DNA from: a virus
UHGV virus genome: UHGV-0136957
Strand: one strand, 5' to 3'
DNA length: 36,992 nucleotides
Shown here piece by piece: positions 786 through 36,992 of the stretch. Position numbers and translations under genes: made by a program. The notes beneath the pieces were generated by a model. The model was not told the DNA's origin. It searched no databases and saw only the letters and a list, made by a program, of their open reading frames with translations. Within the stretch, counting starts at the first letter, position 1; each line of letters begins with the position of its first letter.

Positions 786-1769
786 TTACTCTATTTTTTT
801 AAAGTAGATTTTAATGTAAGCCTTTGTATCTGCTTGAAAATCAAAGGGTGTAATCGTGTAAGTGTTATTTTTTAGAGTTTCGTTTGTGCTAAAAGCCATT
901 GTAAATTCCCAACTTGTAGAGCTTTCGCCCGTTTTTTTCGAGCCTGTGTAGGTTACGCTGGGCTTTTCGGTTGTGGGTAAGGCTAAAAACTGCGTATCCT
1001 CAATAGCTAACATATCAAGCGCGTTTGAGCTTTGGTAAATTTCGCCATTTTCACACTTAATTTCAAACACAAACTTATTTTTTACCCCGTCCGCCACTTG
1101 TATGTCCTCTGTGGGTAGGGACACGCTTAAAGAACCGCTAGCCCCGCTTGGTATTGTAAGCCTTTCTACATATTCAAGGCGTGGCGTGTTTTGAAGTATA
1201 AAATTCCGCACCCATTCAGCATTTACAAGTTCCTTGCCGCTCGCGCTAGGCAAAGGCGTGGGAATAAGCATTGTCCCGCTGTCCGTTTGCAAAATAGGCA
1301 TTTCGTTTAAATCCTTATCCCCTATAAGCACGCTTTGGGCTGTGATTGTCCCACCCAAAATTTCGCCCTTGTTAATCGTGGCGTTTTCAGCGTTTAGGTT
1401 AGTAATGCTTAAATCTGTAATTGTGGCTGTGTTTGCTGTGAGATTTTGGGCGCTTGCGGTTGTAATCTCGGCGGTTGTAATCTCGGCGGTTGTAATAATG
1501 GCGTTTTCGGCTTTAAAAAAAGCTGTATAAAGGTAGGTTTTAAAATCTAAAATTTTTTTTGAAATCATATAAAAAATTTGATTGAAAATTTGCCTTGTGA
1601 TATACAAACCGCCTTCTTTTTTGTCTATGTTATAGCGCGCGCCAAAGCCATCCGCCCAATTCACTTCCCCGTCTGTTTGCGAAGTTAAGTGTAAATTAAA
1701 TTTATCGCCGTTATTTGCAAAGGGTGATGAAAAAAGTTCATCAGGGGCTTGCGGTTCTTGTATAGCCAT
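786..1769 (-). CDS. Tail fibre protein (second, paralogous fibre) with a 15-bp tandem repeat (AEITT)x3
   Basis: Paralogous N-terminus and shared GKELVNAEWV motif; 15-bp repeat gcggttgtaatctcg at 1456-1500. Confidence 0.55.
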   Translation of the reverse strand: MAIQEPQAPDELFSSPFANNGDKFNLHLTSQTDGEVNWADGFGARYNIDKKEGGLYITRQIFNQIFYMISKKILDFKTYLYTAFFKAENAIITTAEITTAEITTASAQNLTANTATITDLSITNLNAENATINKGEILGGTITAQSVLIGDKDLNEMPILQTDSGTMLIPTPLPSASGKELVNAEWVRNFILQNTPRLEYVERLTIPSGASGSLSVSLPTEDIQVADGVKNKFVFEIKCENGEIYQSSNALDMLAIEDTQFLALPTTEKPSVTYTGSKKTGESSTSWEFTMAFSTNETLKNNTYTITPFDFQADTKAYIKIYFKKIE

Positions 1770-26228: not shown

Positions 26229-27620
26229 TTATCTTTTTTTTGTGCGCGAATTACCCTTATTCTTTGTTTTATGCCAAATCGGCGTTAAACCGCTAAATTC
26301 AGCAAAACCATCGCTTTCGCTTATAAAAACATTAAACCCTTGCTCTTTTAGCTTTTTAGCCCACTCTACAAAGGCTTTGTGGTCAAAACCGCTCTTATGA
26401 TAGCCAAAAGCGATATTTTGTTTTTGAGTTCGCAAGTATGGCGGGTCGGCATAAATGATAATTTCGCTTTTATCGCACCCTAGATTTTCGCAAATTTGCG
26501 TAAAATCAAAATCAGCGTAACTCTTGTTTGAAATTTCCAAATTTAAAAAAGCGGGTTGCTGTTCGAGCTGTTGGAGCTGTTCGAGCCGTTGGAGCTGTTC
26601 GAGCCGTTGGAGCTGTTCGAGCCGTTGGAGCTGTTCGAGCTGTTGGGTTTGCGAAAATGCTCTTAAATTGTTAAAAGCCATTATAGTCTCACCGCCACGC
26701 TTTTGTTTATATTTTTTAGCTGTGGCGACCAAATCAGGGCGTTTAAGGCTTATAATTTTGCATAATTTGCTATTTGAAAACTCTTTTAAAGCCCTTGCGC
26801 TAGTCTCTTGCTTAAATTCATATTTCCAATTTTTCTGCAAGCGAGCTATACACAAGGCTTCAAGTGTTATTACAAAAGAGCTAAAAAACGCTCTGCGCTC
26901 AATCCAAGAGCCAAAGTCCCCAAACATAAAATTAGTTAAAACAAATGCGCTAAATTCTCTTTCTTCGCTGTCTAAATTGTCATAATGCTTTGTAAATTCC
27001 TTATTAAAAATCTCAACACACCATTTTAAACCCTCGCCCCTTTTTTCGAATTCATCTTTTAAAAAAGGGTAAAAAATCATATTATGTCCTGCGTGTTTCC
27101 ATTGCCTAGCCCCAAAGGCGTATGATGCGTTTATGCCTTTCGCCCCAAAGCTATAAATAAAAGATTTTATGATTTCAGCGCCTTTTAAATGTTCTTTATT
27201 TTCATATTTTTCTTTTATGTTAAAAAATTCGTTTTTATCAACCCAAAAATACATTTCTTTATCAAAAATTCCCCATTCATTGCGCGGGTGAGCTATGCAG
27301 TCCTTTATATACTCAAACATTAAGCATAAATCAGTTTTAAGCTCATTGTAATACACTTTTAAGCCACTTGCCAACGCCTGAACGCTCATCGCACCGCCAC
27401 CGCCAAATAAATCAAAAAAATACTTTGCGTTTGGACTATGCTTATGTATCTCTTTTAAGAGTGCACCCGCTATTATTTCTTTGCTACCCGTATAAATCAA
27501 GCAGGTTTTAAGCCGTTTTTCGCACGGCGTCCAGCTTGAAATTTTAGCTTTTTTGCCAGAATCAAACTCACTTTTAAAAATAGGCTCATTTATAAGCATA
27601 TCATCACTAAAAAGGCTCAT
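26229..27620 (-). CDS. DNA adenine methyltransferase, Dam/D12 class (alpha architecture), with an internal LEQLQR hexapeptide repeat array
   Basis: FDLFGGGGAMS (motif I) is N-terminal and YADPPYL (motif IV) is C-terminal. WAGGK-like YTGSKEIIAG. Confidence 0.85.
   Translation of the reverse strand: MSLFSDDMLINEPIFKSEFDSGKKAKISSWTPCEKRLKTCLIYTGSKEIIAGALLKEIHKHSPNAKYFFDLFGGGGAMSVQALASGLKVYYNELKTDLCLMFEYIKDCIAHPRNEWGIFDKEMYFWVDKNEFFNIKEKYENKEHLKGAEIIKSFIYSFGAKGINASYAFGARQWKHAGHNMIFYPFLKDEFEKRGEGLKWCVEIFNKEFTKHYDNLDSEEREFSAFVLTNFMFGDFGSWIERRAFFSSFVITLEALCIARLQKNWKYEFKQETSARALKEFSNSKLCKIISLKRPDLVATAKKYKQKRGGETIMAFNNLRAFSQTQQLEQLQRLEQLQRLEQLQRLEQLQQLEQQPAFLNLEISNKSYADFDFTQICENLGCDKSEIIIYADPPYLRTQKQNIAFGYHKSGFDHKAFVEWAKKLKEQGFNVFISESDGFAEFSGLTPIWHKTKNKGNSRTKKR
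26558..26647. repeat. 18-bp in-frame tandem repeat x5 (gctgttcgagc[c/t]gttgga) inside the Dam-like methylase gene
   Basis: Read directly; encodes (LEQLQR)n on the minus strand. Confidence 0.9.
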
Positions 27621-32677: not shown

Positions 32678-33055
32678 TCATTTTAAGCCTTTCAAGCGAG
32701 CCAGCCTATCACATTTTTTTTTAAAATAGCGCAAATTTTGCTCTTTACTTTTTAAAAGCTCTAAAACATAGACTTTTGCTTTGTCTTTGTCTTTGATTTT
32801 GGCTATTTTTCGTGCTGTTTTTTGCATAAAATCACTATAAACGCCTCTTTCGTGCGGGTATTCGTAAATATCACTCATCACTAAAAGCGCAAAGCTCTCT
32901 TCACCCTCGTGTATGTAGCCCAACGCAAGCACCGCTAACAGCTCGTTTTGCGCTTGATGAATTTCATACAAACACTCATTCATCGACTGCTTTGGGTTGA
33001 AACCTACGCCAAACGCAAGAGATACCGCAAAAATCAAAATCAACGCTTTAAACAT
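32678..33055 (-). CDS. Secreted or periplasmic hypothetical protein with an N-terminal signal peptide (moron-like)
   Basis: N-terminus MFKALILIFAVSLAFGVGF is hydrophobic, with an Ala/Gly cleavage-like site. Confidence 0.45.
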   Translation of the reverse strand: MFKALILIFAVSLAFGVGFNPKQSMNECLYEIHQAQNELLAVLALGYIHEGEESFALLVMSDIYEYPHERGVYSDFMQKTARKIAKIKDKDKAKVYVLELLKSKEQNLRYFKKKCDRLARLKGLK

Positions 33056-33389
33056 TTAAGCTCCTTTCGATTTCTGCTATCTCTTTGCGTAGCTCCGCAA
33101 GCCTTTGCAACTTAAATTCCTTGTTTTTAAGCTCGCAAATTTCGTTTTCAAGCCTTGTTAATTCAAGCTCAAAGTCATTTTTCAGCTTTGAAATTTCCAA
33201 GTCCGCGCTTTCGCATTGAGAGCGTATTTGTTGCAAGCACTTTAACGCTTGAAAGCTAGCCTCAGTTTCGATTTTTCCAAAGCGCAAAATCAAACCAAGC
33301 TCGCGCCTTATGCACGAAAGCGTGATTTGAATTTCGCTCATACTACTTAAAAATCGCTCTTTCATTTCACACCTTAACAAAAATTTCAT
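33048..33389 (-). CDS. Hypothetical coiled-coil protein
   Basis: Track ORF; heptad-like KLQRLAELRKEIAEIERSL. Confidence 0.4.
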   Translation of the reverse strand: MKFLLRCEMKERFLSSMSEIQITLSCIRRELGLILRFGKIETEASFQALKCLQQIRSQCESADLEISKLKNDFELELTRLENEICELKNKEFKLQRLAELRKEIAEIERSLNV

Positions 33390-33480
33390 TTGTAGAAAAT
33401 GCGAGAATTATCGCGTTTCCCAAGTCTCAACAAAAGTTTCATTTGTAGAAAATGCGCGAATTATCGCGTTTTCCAAGCTA
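33376..33480. repeat. 52-bp tandem duplication (2 copies, about 90% identical) spanning the 3' end of gene 33408..33701 and the start of gene 33048..33389
   Basis: Copy 1 is 33376-33427 and copy 2 is 33429-33480 (aacaaaa[a/g]tttcatttgtagaaaatgcg[a/c]gaattatcgcgttt[c/t]ccaag...). Confidence 0.85.
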
Positions 33481-33701
33481 TCGCCACTTTCGCTTTTAAT
33501 TTTAATGTTTAAAAATTCGCCATTTTCAAACACAAATTCAACTCTGCCCGAGATTTTATCAAAATTAACGCGCTCAACGCTTTTAAAGACCGTTAAAATC
33601 TCGTTTTTTCGCTTTATGATAAACATTTTGCACATCCTATTTTCAAGGCGTAGCGCGTTTTTTTGTTCGCGCTCGCGCGTAGTGCGGGTAAAAATACCCA
33701 A
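33408..33701 (-). CDS. Hypothetical protein
   Basis: Track ORF; its 3' end lies within a 52-bp tandem duplication. Confidence 0.4.
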   Translation of the reverse strand: MGIFTRTTREREQKNALRLENRMCKMFIIKRKNEILTVFKSVERVNFDKISGRVEFVFENGEFLNIKIKSESGDSLENAIIRAFSTNETFVETWETR

Positions 33702-33807
33702 CTTTGAATTTTGTTAATTTGGATTTTTTTACCAAAAAAACAAAACTCACACACTTTTTGAATTCTCTTTAAGTGGAGTTTAAGCCCTTTGTGCTGTATA
33801 ATCATCG

Positions 33808-34622: not shown

Positions 34623-35165
34623 TTAGCATTCTAAAATTCGCAAATAGCAGTTTTTTATATCGATTTTTTCCAAAAGTTCGTAAAATTCGCGCACGCACTC
34701 GACTGAATTGCTTATCCACCCTTGTTTTTCGTTGCACGATTTTCCCAAAAGTATGCACCCCGCGGTATCCTGTGGGTAGTTTCCTATATGTATGAGTATT
34801 CTGCGGGTGCGAAATGCGGGCATAATCCAATCACAATTAAGCCAAATCGCTGTATTTCGTGCGCCACGCTTAAATTTAGGGTATTTTTTAGTCAAATTTC
34901 CATTTCGTGCGCTATGCGTCCATTCCAAAGCATAATCACGGCTCACTATGCGCTTGTCCTGCCCTGATATATCAGTGCTTGCGCCCCCGTTTTCAAGTGT
35001 AAAGCACTTAAAAAGCACTTTGTCCTTGTCTTTCGTATCTAAAACGCTTAATTTGCCAAGCGTTGCGTTTTCTGCTTTTGCTGTGCTGTTGGGTTTTGCG
35101 ACATTTGCTACTTCTTTAAAGCGTTGTAGAATGATTTTGTAGCGTTTTTCGTCTATTTTTGACAT
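34623..35165 (-). CDS. Hypothetical protein, possibly L,D-transpeptidase-like (YkuD-type H...G...T.GC motif); could be a cell-wall enzyme
   Basis: Track ORF; AAGGA RBS plus ATG; motif ILIHIGNYPQDTAGCILLG resembles the YkuD catalytic His/Cys region. Weak. Confidence 0.3.
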   Translation of the reverse strand: MSKIDEKRYKIILQRFKEVANVAKPNSTAKAENATLGKLSVLDTKDKDKVLFKCFTLENGGASTDISGQDKRIVSRDYALEWTHSARNGNLTKKYPKFKRGARNTAIWLNCDWIMPAFRTRRILIHIGNYPQDTAGCILLGKSCNEKQGWISNSVECVREFYELLEKIDIKNCYLRILEC

Positions 35166-35265: not shown

Positions 35266-35778
35266 TTACTCAACAAATTTTATAACCTCAACGCGTGGCG
35301 CGTAAGAGTTGGGTAGTTCGCCCGTCTCGCGACAATGTCGCATTAAAATCGCGGCTCGGCTTGTGTAGCGGTAGTAACTATCGCTAGGGTTGTCAAGGCT
35401 CTGCACGCGTTTTTTCCAACAAAGCGCATCAAAGGCTCGGGCGTAGTCGCTCCACTCTCGCGGGCTGTCAAGTCCGCTAATCTCACAAAAGCCCGCAAAT
35501 ACCCAACGCCCAGCGTTATTTTGCTTGTAGCGAAAGGCTTTAAATGAGATATAGCTTGTCTCTTTATCCAAAAAATGCCGTTCAGCACTTAAAAACTCAA
35601 AGGCTGTGCCTTTTTTATTGACAAAATAGCACTTAAAAAGTTCGCACCAGCTTGTAGCTGGCGCGGGCAACTCATTTTTAAGTCCCGCTTCGTCTCTACT
35701 CTCTCGGCTTTTGGCTTTCATTTTCTCAAAATAAGCCGTTAAGCTATCTCCGCTGTCATTTTTTTGTAAAATCATCAC
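35266..35778 (-). CDS. Hypothetical protein, compositionally atypical (GC-rich) ORF co-transcribed with the replication genes
   Basis: Track ORF; ATGA start overlap with the DnaC-like gene; locally about 50% GC versus a 35-40% genome background (judged by eye). Confidence 0.45.
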   Translation of the reverse strand: MMILQKNDSGDSLTAYFEKMKAKSRESRDEAGLKNELPAPATSWCELFKCYFVNKKGTAFEFLSAERHFLDKETSYISFKAFRYKQNNAGRWVFAGFCEISGLDSPREWSDYARAFDALCWKKRVQSLDNPSDSYYRYTSRAAILMRHCRETGELPNSYAPRVEVIKFVE

Positions 35779-36386
35779 TCACCCCTTAAATCCACACCTT
35801 TAATCTGCAAAACCACAACGCCACCGCCTTGTTTTAGGCGACTTACAGCCATCTTGCTTAAAAAATTTAGTAAATTTTTGGGGTTTTCGTTGAAAATTAA
35901 GCACAAAGGCACTAATTTATCATAAGCCGTCATCACTATTTCATTGATAATCTCCCAATCGTCCGCGCTTTGTAGCTGGTGTAGCTCATCGATAATAACG
36001 AATTTGCAGGGCGTGGGCGGTTCATCGTAAAAAATGCTCTCCTTTGCAAAAACGCCCTGCAAGGTTTTGGCGATGTTTTTAAAGTTTCCCTTAAATTCGC
36101 TTACTAACACGCTCGCGCGGTTGTAGTAAATTCGAGCCTCTCCGCCCGTCTGCTCTTTTAAACGCATAGCTAGTTCAAAAGCTAGGTAAGTCTTGCCTCT
36201 GCCCGTTTCACCACACAAAAGCAGATTTTTTTTGCCCTGCATTGCGCTTAAAGCGTTGTTTAAATCCACGAACGCACCCTTATCGTGCATAAGCACGCCA
36301 TTTTCCCTATCGTTTAAAAAACGCTCGCTTATGCCGTCTAAACGCGCAGTTTTTAAAACGCGGTCTTTATAGTTAGTTGTTTCCAT
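35775..36386 (-). CDS. AAA+ ATPase, DnaC/IstB-like helicase loader
   Basis: Walker A LLLCGETGRGKTYLA and Walker B KFVIIDELHQL. It lies immediately downstream of the initiator-like gene and overlaps it by 14 nt. Confidence 0.7.
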   Translation of the reverse strand: METTNYKDRVLKTARLDGISERFLNDRENGVLMHDKGAFVDLNNALSAMQGKKNLLLCGETGRGKTYLAFELAMRLKEQTGGEARIYYNRASVLVSEFKGNFKNIAKTLQGVFAKESIFYDEPPTPCKFVIIDELHQLQSADDWEIINEIVMTAYDKLVPLCLIFNENPKNLLNFLSKMAVSRLKQGGGVVVLQIKGVDLRGE

Positions 36387-36992
36387 CGAAATCCTCCGTA
36401 TTTGATTTTTGAAAATTCAAGGCTTTTAAATCGTCATCGCTGTAATATCTATCGTTCAAATCGGTTGTAACATACTTTTTAGCAAGGTCGCCCCTTGCCT
36501 TATTGCGCTCGCGGGCGTAGGCAGAGTTTTCAAAGTTAATTTTTCGTGGCTCGAATAAGCCCTGCCATCCGTTTGTAATACTATTTTCTATGCTGTCATA
36601 AGCCCCTATGCCTAGCTTAATGAGCTTATTGATGATTTTAACTGCGCCCGTTTCAGTTATCGGCTTTTTAATCTCATCTCTATGTTTTGCGAATTCCAAA
36701 ACATCAGCCAGCGTGAAATGGTGTATTTTGTCTTTGTGAGCGTTAAAAGCGTTTGTAATGTTTAAAGCACTATTAGCTTTTTTAGCTTTTGGCTTTTTAA
36801 CACTTAAATCGCTTTGTGTTTGTGATGAATTCTCAAAAGCAGAATTTTCACACTCAAAAAAAGTGCTTGCGCTTTGTTCTTTTGGTATTGTTTCTTTTGT
36901 TTTTGTATTCTTTTGATTTTGTAATATAGGTAGTTTAGGGGTATTTTTACCCTTATCGTTCGGGGTATTTTTACCATTATCGTTCGGGGTAT
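36373..36992 (-). CDS. Replication-initiator-like protein, 3' part (C-terminal domain), in frame with the 5' part across the window junction
   Basis: Track ORF 36373..36699 begins at an internal TTG. The same frame stays open upstream through 36992 (...KGKNTPKLPILQNQKNTKTKETIPKEQSASTFFECENS...HHFTLADVLEFAKHRDEIKK...). It joins the frame of the ORF at 1..469 exactly. Confidence 0.55.
   Translation of the reverse strand, partial: TPNDNGKNTPNDKGKNTPKLPILQNQKNTKTKETIPKEQSASTFFECENSAFENSSQTQSDLSVKKPKAKKANSALNITNAFNAHKDKIHHFTLADVLEFAKHRDEIKKPITETGAVKIINKLIKLGIGAYDSIENSITNGWQGLFEPRKINFENSAYARERNKARGDLAKKYVTTDLNDRYYSDDDLKALNFQKSNTEDFDGNN
36928..36992. repeat. Same 24-bp tandem array (about 2.5 units) as at positions 1-116; the sequence is seamless if the ends are joined
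   Basis: Read directly: ...ggggtatttttacccttatcgttcggggtatttttaccattatcgttcggggtat, continuing into ttttaccattatcg... at position 1. Confidence 0.9.

Follow-up and report, generated by a model that had tools for sequence, protein, structure and literature searches.

The stretch of viral DNA analysed here (36,992 bp, 37.7% GC; referred to as the window) carries its open reading frames (ORFs) almost exclusively on the minus strand, and both of its ends lie within a tandem array of 24-bp units. Read across the joined ends, the array is part of a 362-aa ORF on the minus strand, which starts with an ATG at position 469, has its last codon at 36376 and resembles replication initiators of the O type. 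In the direction of the gene, this ORF encodes a predicted DNA-binding domain, the array, an A-rich tract and a C-terminal domain, and is followed directly by the gene of a DnaC/IstB-like helicase loader (Table 1).

Table 1. Features of the initiator region and of the isolated repeat core (window coordinates)
Feature	Position	Strand	Details
Isolated iteron core, exact 14-bp copy	33686–33699	+	Inverted with respect to the array; 3e-4 expected by chance
DnaC/IstB-like AAA+ helicase-loader gene	35775–36386	−	203 aa; overlaps the rep stop by 14 nt
Initiator gene, 3′ part	36373–36992	−	Rest of the array, A-rich tract, C-terminal domain, stop 36375–36373
C-terminal domain of the initiator	36373–36762	−	Helical bundle (residues ~234–305) and disordered tail
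A-rich tract, putative DNA-unwinding element	36870–36938	−	Composition, repeats, position
Iteron array, right-hand part	36935–36992	−	Cores 36963–36976 and 36939–36952 (the latter adjoins the A-rich tract)
Iteron array, left-hand part	1–110	−	Cores 91–104, 67–80, 43–56 and 19–32, and the straddling core 36987–36992 + 1–8
Initiator (rep, O-like) gene, 5′ part	1–469	−	ATG 469–467; residues 1–156; continues at 36992
N-terminal winged-helix DNA-binding domain (predicted)	119–469	−	Residues 1–117; HTH_36/DnaD_N matches, AlphaFold, Foldseek
Predicted recognition helix	227–265	−	Residues 69–81 (AlphaFold model); D69-K70 at its N-terminus
Upstream intergenic region	470–785	−	RBS AGGAGG 475–480; terminator-like hairpins 644–664 and 766–782, after the preceding 327-aa gene

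Circular join and phage lineage

TRF reports the 24-bp period separately at the two ends of the window, with 4.6 copies at 1–110 (98% match, score 206) and 2.3 copies at 36938–36992 (score 103). Read in register over the ends, the array comprises six full units, starting at 36945, 36969, 1, 25, 49 and 73, and partial units at 36935–36944 and 97–110, which amounts to 7.0 units with seven dyad cores. The original prediction of about 7.5 units at 36928–36992 and 1–116 was thus right about the direct 24-bp array and overestimated its count and extent.

Repeats at both ends of a window may point to an assembly artefact, in which a contig was broken or mis-circularised within a repeat, and contig L003 from another sample (ERZ1749034) could be read in the same way: two segments, of 3110 nt (window 3172 to 63) and 4610 nt (36982 to 32373), agree with the window at 99.97% identity, and the one further difference is in the iteron cores, of which L003, at 2.2-fold coverage, has two and the window seven. 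In L003, however, the array is internal (L003 3063–3110), and the contig therefore spans the window join. The join is moreover in register and preserves the ORF across the ends, and nine more assemblies contain the same gene with an internal array, so that ten independent assemblies with comparable arrays and the same flanking genes are available. The circular join of the window is genuine, and we reject an artefact, the most improbable of the explanations considered here; doubt attaches solely to the copy number, and the array itself is secure. The figure of seven is uncertain, as both contig ends lie within the repeats, where the assembler probably broke the contig. The difference between two and seven cores reflects either real copy-number variation or assembly collapse at 2.2-fold coverage.

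The large terminase shares 50–51% identity with its counterparts in the Campylobacter phages DA10, PC11 and PC22, and 41% with the terminase of a Helicobacter prophage, which makes a member of the Campylobacterota the likely host. Searches with the rep region returned no match in GenBank phages, by DNA or by protein, and IMG/VR and GTDB genomes scanned with the N-domain or the N-domain alignment gave no matches either; the scan of JGI metagenomes yielded just two partial loci. No tRNAs were found in the search for them.

Initiator and helicase loader

The initiator, for which we collected 29 homologues, matches the profile phrog_678 (“replication initiation O-like”) with E = 7.4e-21, residues 45–333 aligning to profile positions 66–301. 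The O protein of phage lambda (NC_001416) matches this profile too, through its N-terminal 172 residues (E = 1.7e-35). The full initiator had no Pfam match at E ≤ 1, including Phage_rep_O, and alignment of the N-domain with lambda O by hhalign was not significant (probability 0.1). The protein is accordingly placed outside the lambda O family proper (Pfam Phage_rep_O/PHROG 277), the shared match to PHROG 678 being the sole, indirect link. Membership in Rep_3 was not found either: the initiator and its relatives have no such Pfam match, and the array lies inside the gene.

Two lines of evidence suggest that the N-domain is a winged helix. At the level of profiles, members of the N-domain family match HTH_36 (seven of nine, best E = 2.3e-6) and DnaD_N (four of nine). 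The AlphaFold model likewise shows a winged helix, with a pLDDT of 88–93 over residues 30–110, and all its Foldseek matches are winged-helix proteins, albeit at weak E-values, including DnaD-N (2v79), a staphylococcal Rep–DNA complex (5kbj/4pql), RepA_N and TFE. The C-domain is modelled with a pLDDT of 80–91 for its first 70 residues. It had no Pfam, PDB-sequence or Foldseek match, and a DnaD-like C-domain is therefore not supportable.

Directly after the initiator gene, a DnaC-like loader gene had been predicted and was confirmed by profile matches to phrog_50 (E = 1.5e-15), phrog_3277 (E = 7e-12) and PF01695 (IstB_IS21, 24.9 bits versus a cut-off of 24.1); PF13401 also scored above its cut-off, and a Walker A motif (GETGRGKT) is present. 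On the other side of the initiator gene, the intergenic region is presumed to be a transcription-unit boundary. Scanning the region upstream of the initiator gene for promoters gave nothing above shuffled sequences.

Dyad symmetry of the 24-bp unit

As written on the window strand, the array unit reads TTTTACC[C/A]TTATCGTTCGGGGTAT, and the 24-mer of the array is GATAAGGGTAAAAATACCCCGAAC. In gene orientation, the unit is GATAA-GGGTA-AAAA-TACCC-CGAAC and contains the dyad GGGTA-AAAA-TACCC. The 5-bp arms are perfect in four of the seven cores and match at four of five positions in the remaining three (TGGTA, the K-to-N variant). Allowing for up to two mismatches, the core GGGTAAAAATACCC occurs seven times in the linear window, compared to 0.28 expected occurrences, and none of 100 shuffles reached seven. 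Six of these matches belong to the array, and one is isolated; the linear scan misses the array's seventh core because it straddles the window join. Translated in the frame of the initiator, the array encodes the octapeptides KGKNTPND and NGKNTPND between the N- and C-terminal domains, as originally proposed.

The isolated core is a candidate secondary initiator-binding site. It is located within a small ORF (33614–33805, minus strand), beside an AT-rich stretch and a CGCGCGAGCGCG palindrome. The core is kept in L003 and L004, and differs at 4 of 14 positions in L013, whose initiator has a different N-domain; taken alone, this loss is not significant (binomial P = 0.065).

The A-rich tract

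The 60 nt past the last dyad have 22% GC and 63% A on the coding strand and form the lowest-GC 60-nt window of the gene. The description of this stretch as strongly AT-rich thus holds within the gene, but not genome-wide, where it ranks within the bottom 3.6% of windows by GC content and is matched in AT content by about 40 regions. The tract contains three imperfect 16-nt repeats, TACAAAAnCAAAAGAA (TRF period 16, three copies, 36877–36923), and a conserved junction motif, AAAC(C/T)TACCTATA, and an A-rich tract recurs after the last dyad in relatives with other iteron types. Its weight is in the position and in the recurrence in relatives, and not in the composition alone.

Within the A-rich tract, TTACAA(A/G) is found one to three times, about 14–17 nt apart, in nine of ten family loci, whereas 0.13 occurrences are expected per 80 nt. 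These loci include the window (36870–36938), L008, L010, L012, L015 and L019, and the motif is also present once in the AT tract of lambda (L018 620–700). A role as a repeated element within the unwinding region is conceivable.

GC skew, proposed as a check in the original prediction, is negative in every 1-kb window because nearly all genes are on one strand; it has no turning point and is thus uninformative about the origin. A search of the window for DnaA boxes yielded no exact match and nothing close to the array.

DNA element versus peptide linker

An in-frame array might be conserved for its DNA or for the peptide that it encodes, and we compared the two in the window and 12 related loci. 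Among 15 distinct units of the GGGTA type from six genomes, core positions 6–19 are nearly invariant, and the four-fold degenerate third positions inside the 14-bp core (GGT and ACC) are each unchanged in 15 of 15 units. Just outside the core, the four-fold site of the adjoining CCN codon is A in four, G in five and T in six units, and the unit flanks vary even between units of one genome. Since the core is frozen while the flanks differ between the units of a single genome, homogenisation of whole units cannot explain the pattern. The repeat peptide, in turn, varies non-conservatively (KNTP, KNTL, KITP, KFTP, KNIP and KNSP), with substitutions of P to L, N to F or I, and T to I or S.

Relatives with other arms extend this picture. 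The arm variants are symmetric, with GTATA/TATAC in L008 and L019 and GGCTA/TAGCC in L012. In L010, the dyads are ATGACA-AAA-TGTCAT and recur with a period of 23 bp, which is out of frame, and the protein is for this reason devoid of a peptide repeat. The rep gene of L015 has no array at all; three units (GGGTAAAATTACCC; GATAAGGGTAAAATTACCCCTAT) with 24-bp spacing are instead located in the 389-bp intergenic region upstream of rep, where an A-rich tract containing three copies of TTTACAAAAACAAA comes next, and the frame differs from the KGKNTP reading. In this locus, the cassette (L015 2253–2642) is preceded by three “flipped” palindromes, TTACC-ATA-GGGTAA, at a spacing of about 21 bp, and a free-standing 120-aa protein resembling the N-domain of P0012/P0013 is encoded directly before the rep gene.

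A low-complexity peptide linker between two domains, expanded by slippage and devoid of any DNA function, would have several of the properties of the array, whose units keep the reading frame, differ in number and specify a hydrophilic octapeptide rich in Pro, Gly and Asn, as is typical of linkers. As the comparison of related phages suggested in the original prediction revealed, close relatives have from two to seven iterons, each unit corresponding to 8 aa, and the P0017 cluster (at least 90% identity) has three to five. We nevertheless regard a pure peptide linker as very improbable because it is contradicted by the frozen core, the out-of-frame array of L010 and the intergenic array of L015. 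Synonymous sites are frozen solely within the dyad-symmetric core while the peptide changes non-conservatively, the arms change symmetrically, and the type of repeat follows the N-domain. Rather than a peptide that is kept while its DNA changes freely at synonymous positions, the outcome weighed in the original prediction, we thus observe the opposite. On sequence alone, the comparison shows the peptide repeat as a passenger of a DNA element, and selection acts on the DNA of the array and not on the peptide. Very probably, it is the initiator of the phage itself that binds the 24-bp repeats.

Exchangeable modules and recognition-helix covariation

In L013 and L014, the stretch without homology to the window coincides exactly with the N-domain and the iterons; in L006, L007 and L019, homology is missing over the C-domain and the loader. 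When the same C-domain is combined with an unrelated N-domain, other palindromic repeats are found, such as seven units of 15 bp containing TGAAATTTCA in L013. The loader type follows the C-domain type in all 11 loci with a loader gene directly after rep. Read from these alignments, the recombination boundaries define two modules, N-domain plus iterons and C-domain plus loader, which is the two-module logic of lambdoid phages. Judged by its covariation with the loader, the sole basis for this assignment, the C-domain would be the loader-recruiting module.

Within the N-domain, residues 69–70 track the dyad arms without exception in about 30 proteins. DK is found with GGGTA/TACCC, HL with GTATA/TATAC, EM with GGCTA/TAGCC and QR with ATGACA/TGTCAT. 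The combination of HL and GTATA is present in two backgrounds, in L019, whose N-domain is close to that of the window, and in L008, which is 68% identical. A large part of this covariation could stem from recombination or from the inheritance of whole modules and not from repeated independent co-evolution. With somewhat less than even confidence, we propose that the iterons and the A-rich tract form a self-contained DNA cassette and that a two-residue switch (DK, HL, EM, QR) re-targets the initiator to new arms. If so, this group of phages would be a natural series of orthogonal initiator/origin pairs with a readable winged-helix recognition code, and the isolated core at 33686–33699 would serve looping or handcuffing as a second initiator site with a regulatory role. 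Four arm types with four residue pairs, together with cassettes in frame, out of frame and between genes, provide ready predictions for binding-specificity experiments.

Comparison with known origins

In lambda, the origin inside gene O is made up of iterons, each with an A-tract flanked by inverted arms, and of an A-rich tract after them (PMC7466680; PMC3349717). The annotated lambda iterons, ATCCCTCAAAACGAGGGA, are present in four copies with a spacing of 20, 24 and 23 bp (O nucleotides 349–433), and the A-rich tract comes next. The locus described here has the same layout: the putative origin lies midway along the initiator gene, separating the DNA-binding N-terminal part from a C-terminal part, and consists of several inverted-repeat iterons with a central A-tract, spaced within the range of 20–24 bp, and an A-rich tract immediately downstream in the direction of the gene, with an overlapping loader gene next. 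Unlike lambda, with four units of 18 bp and irregular spacers, it has seven units with an exact in-frame period of 24 bp, and the core is GGGTA-AAAA-TACCC instead of TCCCTC-AAAAC-GAGGGA. The proteins differ as well: neither pairwise nor profile comparison relates the initiator significantly to lambda O, Pfam Phage_rep_O gave no match, the loader is a DnaC/IstB-type AAA+ protein (phrog_50) and not a homologue of lambda P (phrog_109), and the likely host belongs to the Campylobacterota.

The variable iteron number has a precedent in the lambdoid Stx phages 933W and P27, which have six iterons compared to four in lambda, the two extra iterons accounting for 13 aa of the initiator linker (PMC7466680). 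As in these phages, iteron number differs between close relatives and lengthens the linker of the initiator; the protein family (at the sequence level) and the iteron sequence are different, and in the Stx phages binding has been characterised experimentally. A further parallel is oriL of the Bacillus phage SPP1, where direct repeats together with an unwinding element rich in AT are located within gene 38 (G38P) and which is complemented by a second origin, oriR (PMC6316719). Both systems have repeats and an AT-rich element inside the gene of the origin-binding protein, a loader gene next and a second binding region elsewhere in the genome, to which the candidate isolated core is comparable. 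The second site of SPP1 is, however, a full origin and here a single dyad, and SPP1 provides both a DnaB-type helicase of its own (G40P) and a loader that is not an AAA+ protein (G39P).

Iteron plasmids of the Rep_3 (pPS10 RepA, R6K pi, RK2 TrfA) and RepA_N types share winged-helix initiators and repeats of 17–24 bp beside an AT-rich unwinding element. In RepA_N plasmids, the rep gene likewise contains the origin repeats. The iterons of classical Rep_3 plasmids are found outside rep and are direct repeats bound by monomers, whereas each unit of the present array is itself a dyad, and the initiator has no sequence match to either family.

A probable replication origin within the initiator gene

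Taken together, we consider it probable that the origin of theta-type replication of this phage is within the linker-coding part of its initiator gene. A two-domain initiator, at least three dyad iterons in mid-gene, an AT-rich tract after the last iteron and two exchangeable modules, the sequence-level features of this functional class, are all found. Each testable sequence-level prediction of the originally proposed lambda O/ori-like arrangement was borne out, from the phrog_678 match, the winged helix and the dyads with their A-tract to the A-rich tract, the loader and the covariation, so that both analogy and covariation speak for the reading.

On the model of lambda and SPP1, dimers of the winged-helix N-domain would bind the seven dyads spaced at 24 bp, with a specificity that may be due in part to D69-K70, with which the predicted recognition helix begins. 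The multimeric initiator–DNA complex formed in this way would destabilise the adjoining A-rich tract at 36870–36938, and the C-domain would recruit the DnaC-like loader encoded by the next gene, which in turn would deliver the replicative helicase of the host, leading to origin firing. The KGKNTPND repeat would be a tolerated by-product, a flexible linker whose length follows the iteron copy number.

Initiator binding might alternatively serve mainly for control, through autorepression, as a roadblock to rep transcription, by titration or by handcuffing, with strand opening elsewhere, for instance near the isolated core at 33686–33699 or in one of the more AT-rich intergenic regions. In favour of this, the exact and conserved isolated core is found 2.7 kb downstream, adjoining an AT-rich stretch, the A-rich tract is equalled or exceeded in AT content by about 40 regions, plasmid-borne lambda iterons can titrate O and thereby silence replication (PMC3349717), and the second origin of SPP1 lies away from the initiator gene (PMC6316719). 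Against this stands the order of iterons followed by an A-rich tract, which is found in every relative, including the intergenic cassette of L015 and the loci with other iteron types. In addition, the isolated site is a single dyad, whereas the minimal unwinding unit of lambda is composed of two iterons and the AT tract (PMC7466680). We therefore regard control as the main role of the dyads as unlikely, though less so than the linker or artefact explanations.

An origin in the linker-coding region remains the preferred interpretation, and the analysis thus locates a probable replication origin and its initiator–loader module for an uncultured phage lineage without a relative in GenBank phage records. 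The concept repeats the paradigm of lambda, the Stx phages and SPP1 and adds no new one; the added value is a clean covariation series and the presence of in-frame, out-of-frame and intergenic versions of one cassette. The lineage could supply compatible or incompatible origin modules for the construction of Campylobacterota vectors.

Other features of the window and its relatives

Three further repeats were found in the window. An 18-bp tandem repeat at 26558–26646 (4.9 copies, 97% match, sub-period of 9 bp) is located in a 463-aa ORF (26229–27620, minus strand), the C-terminal part of which matches DNA methyltransferase PHROGs. At 33376–33477, a 53-bp direct repeat (1.9 copies, 93% match) spans the end and start of the neighbouring small ORFs 33408–33701 and 33048–33389 on the minus strand. 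A perfect 15-bp tandem repeat at 1456–1496 (2.7 copies) encodes TTAEI repeats in the 327-aa ORF at 786–1769 (minus strand), a conserved, unannotated and tail-fibre-like protein whose gene is invariably found ahead of the rep module in relatives. Two genes downstream of the loader, at 34623–35165 (minus strand), the window and all close relatives encode a DUF5675 (PF18925) protein of 180 aa. In L008, a reverse-transcriptase gene (RVT_1; L008 647–1702, minus strand) lies between tail-fibre-like genes and the rep module and may be part of a diversity-generating retroelement.
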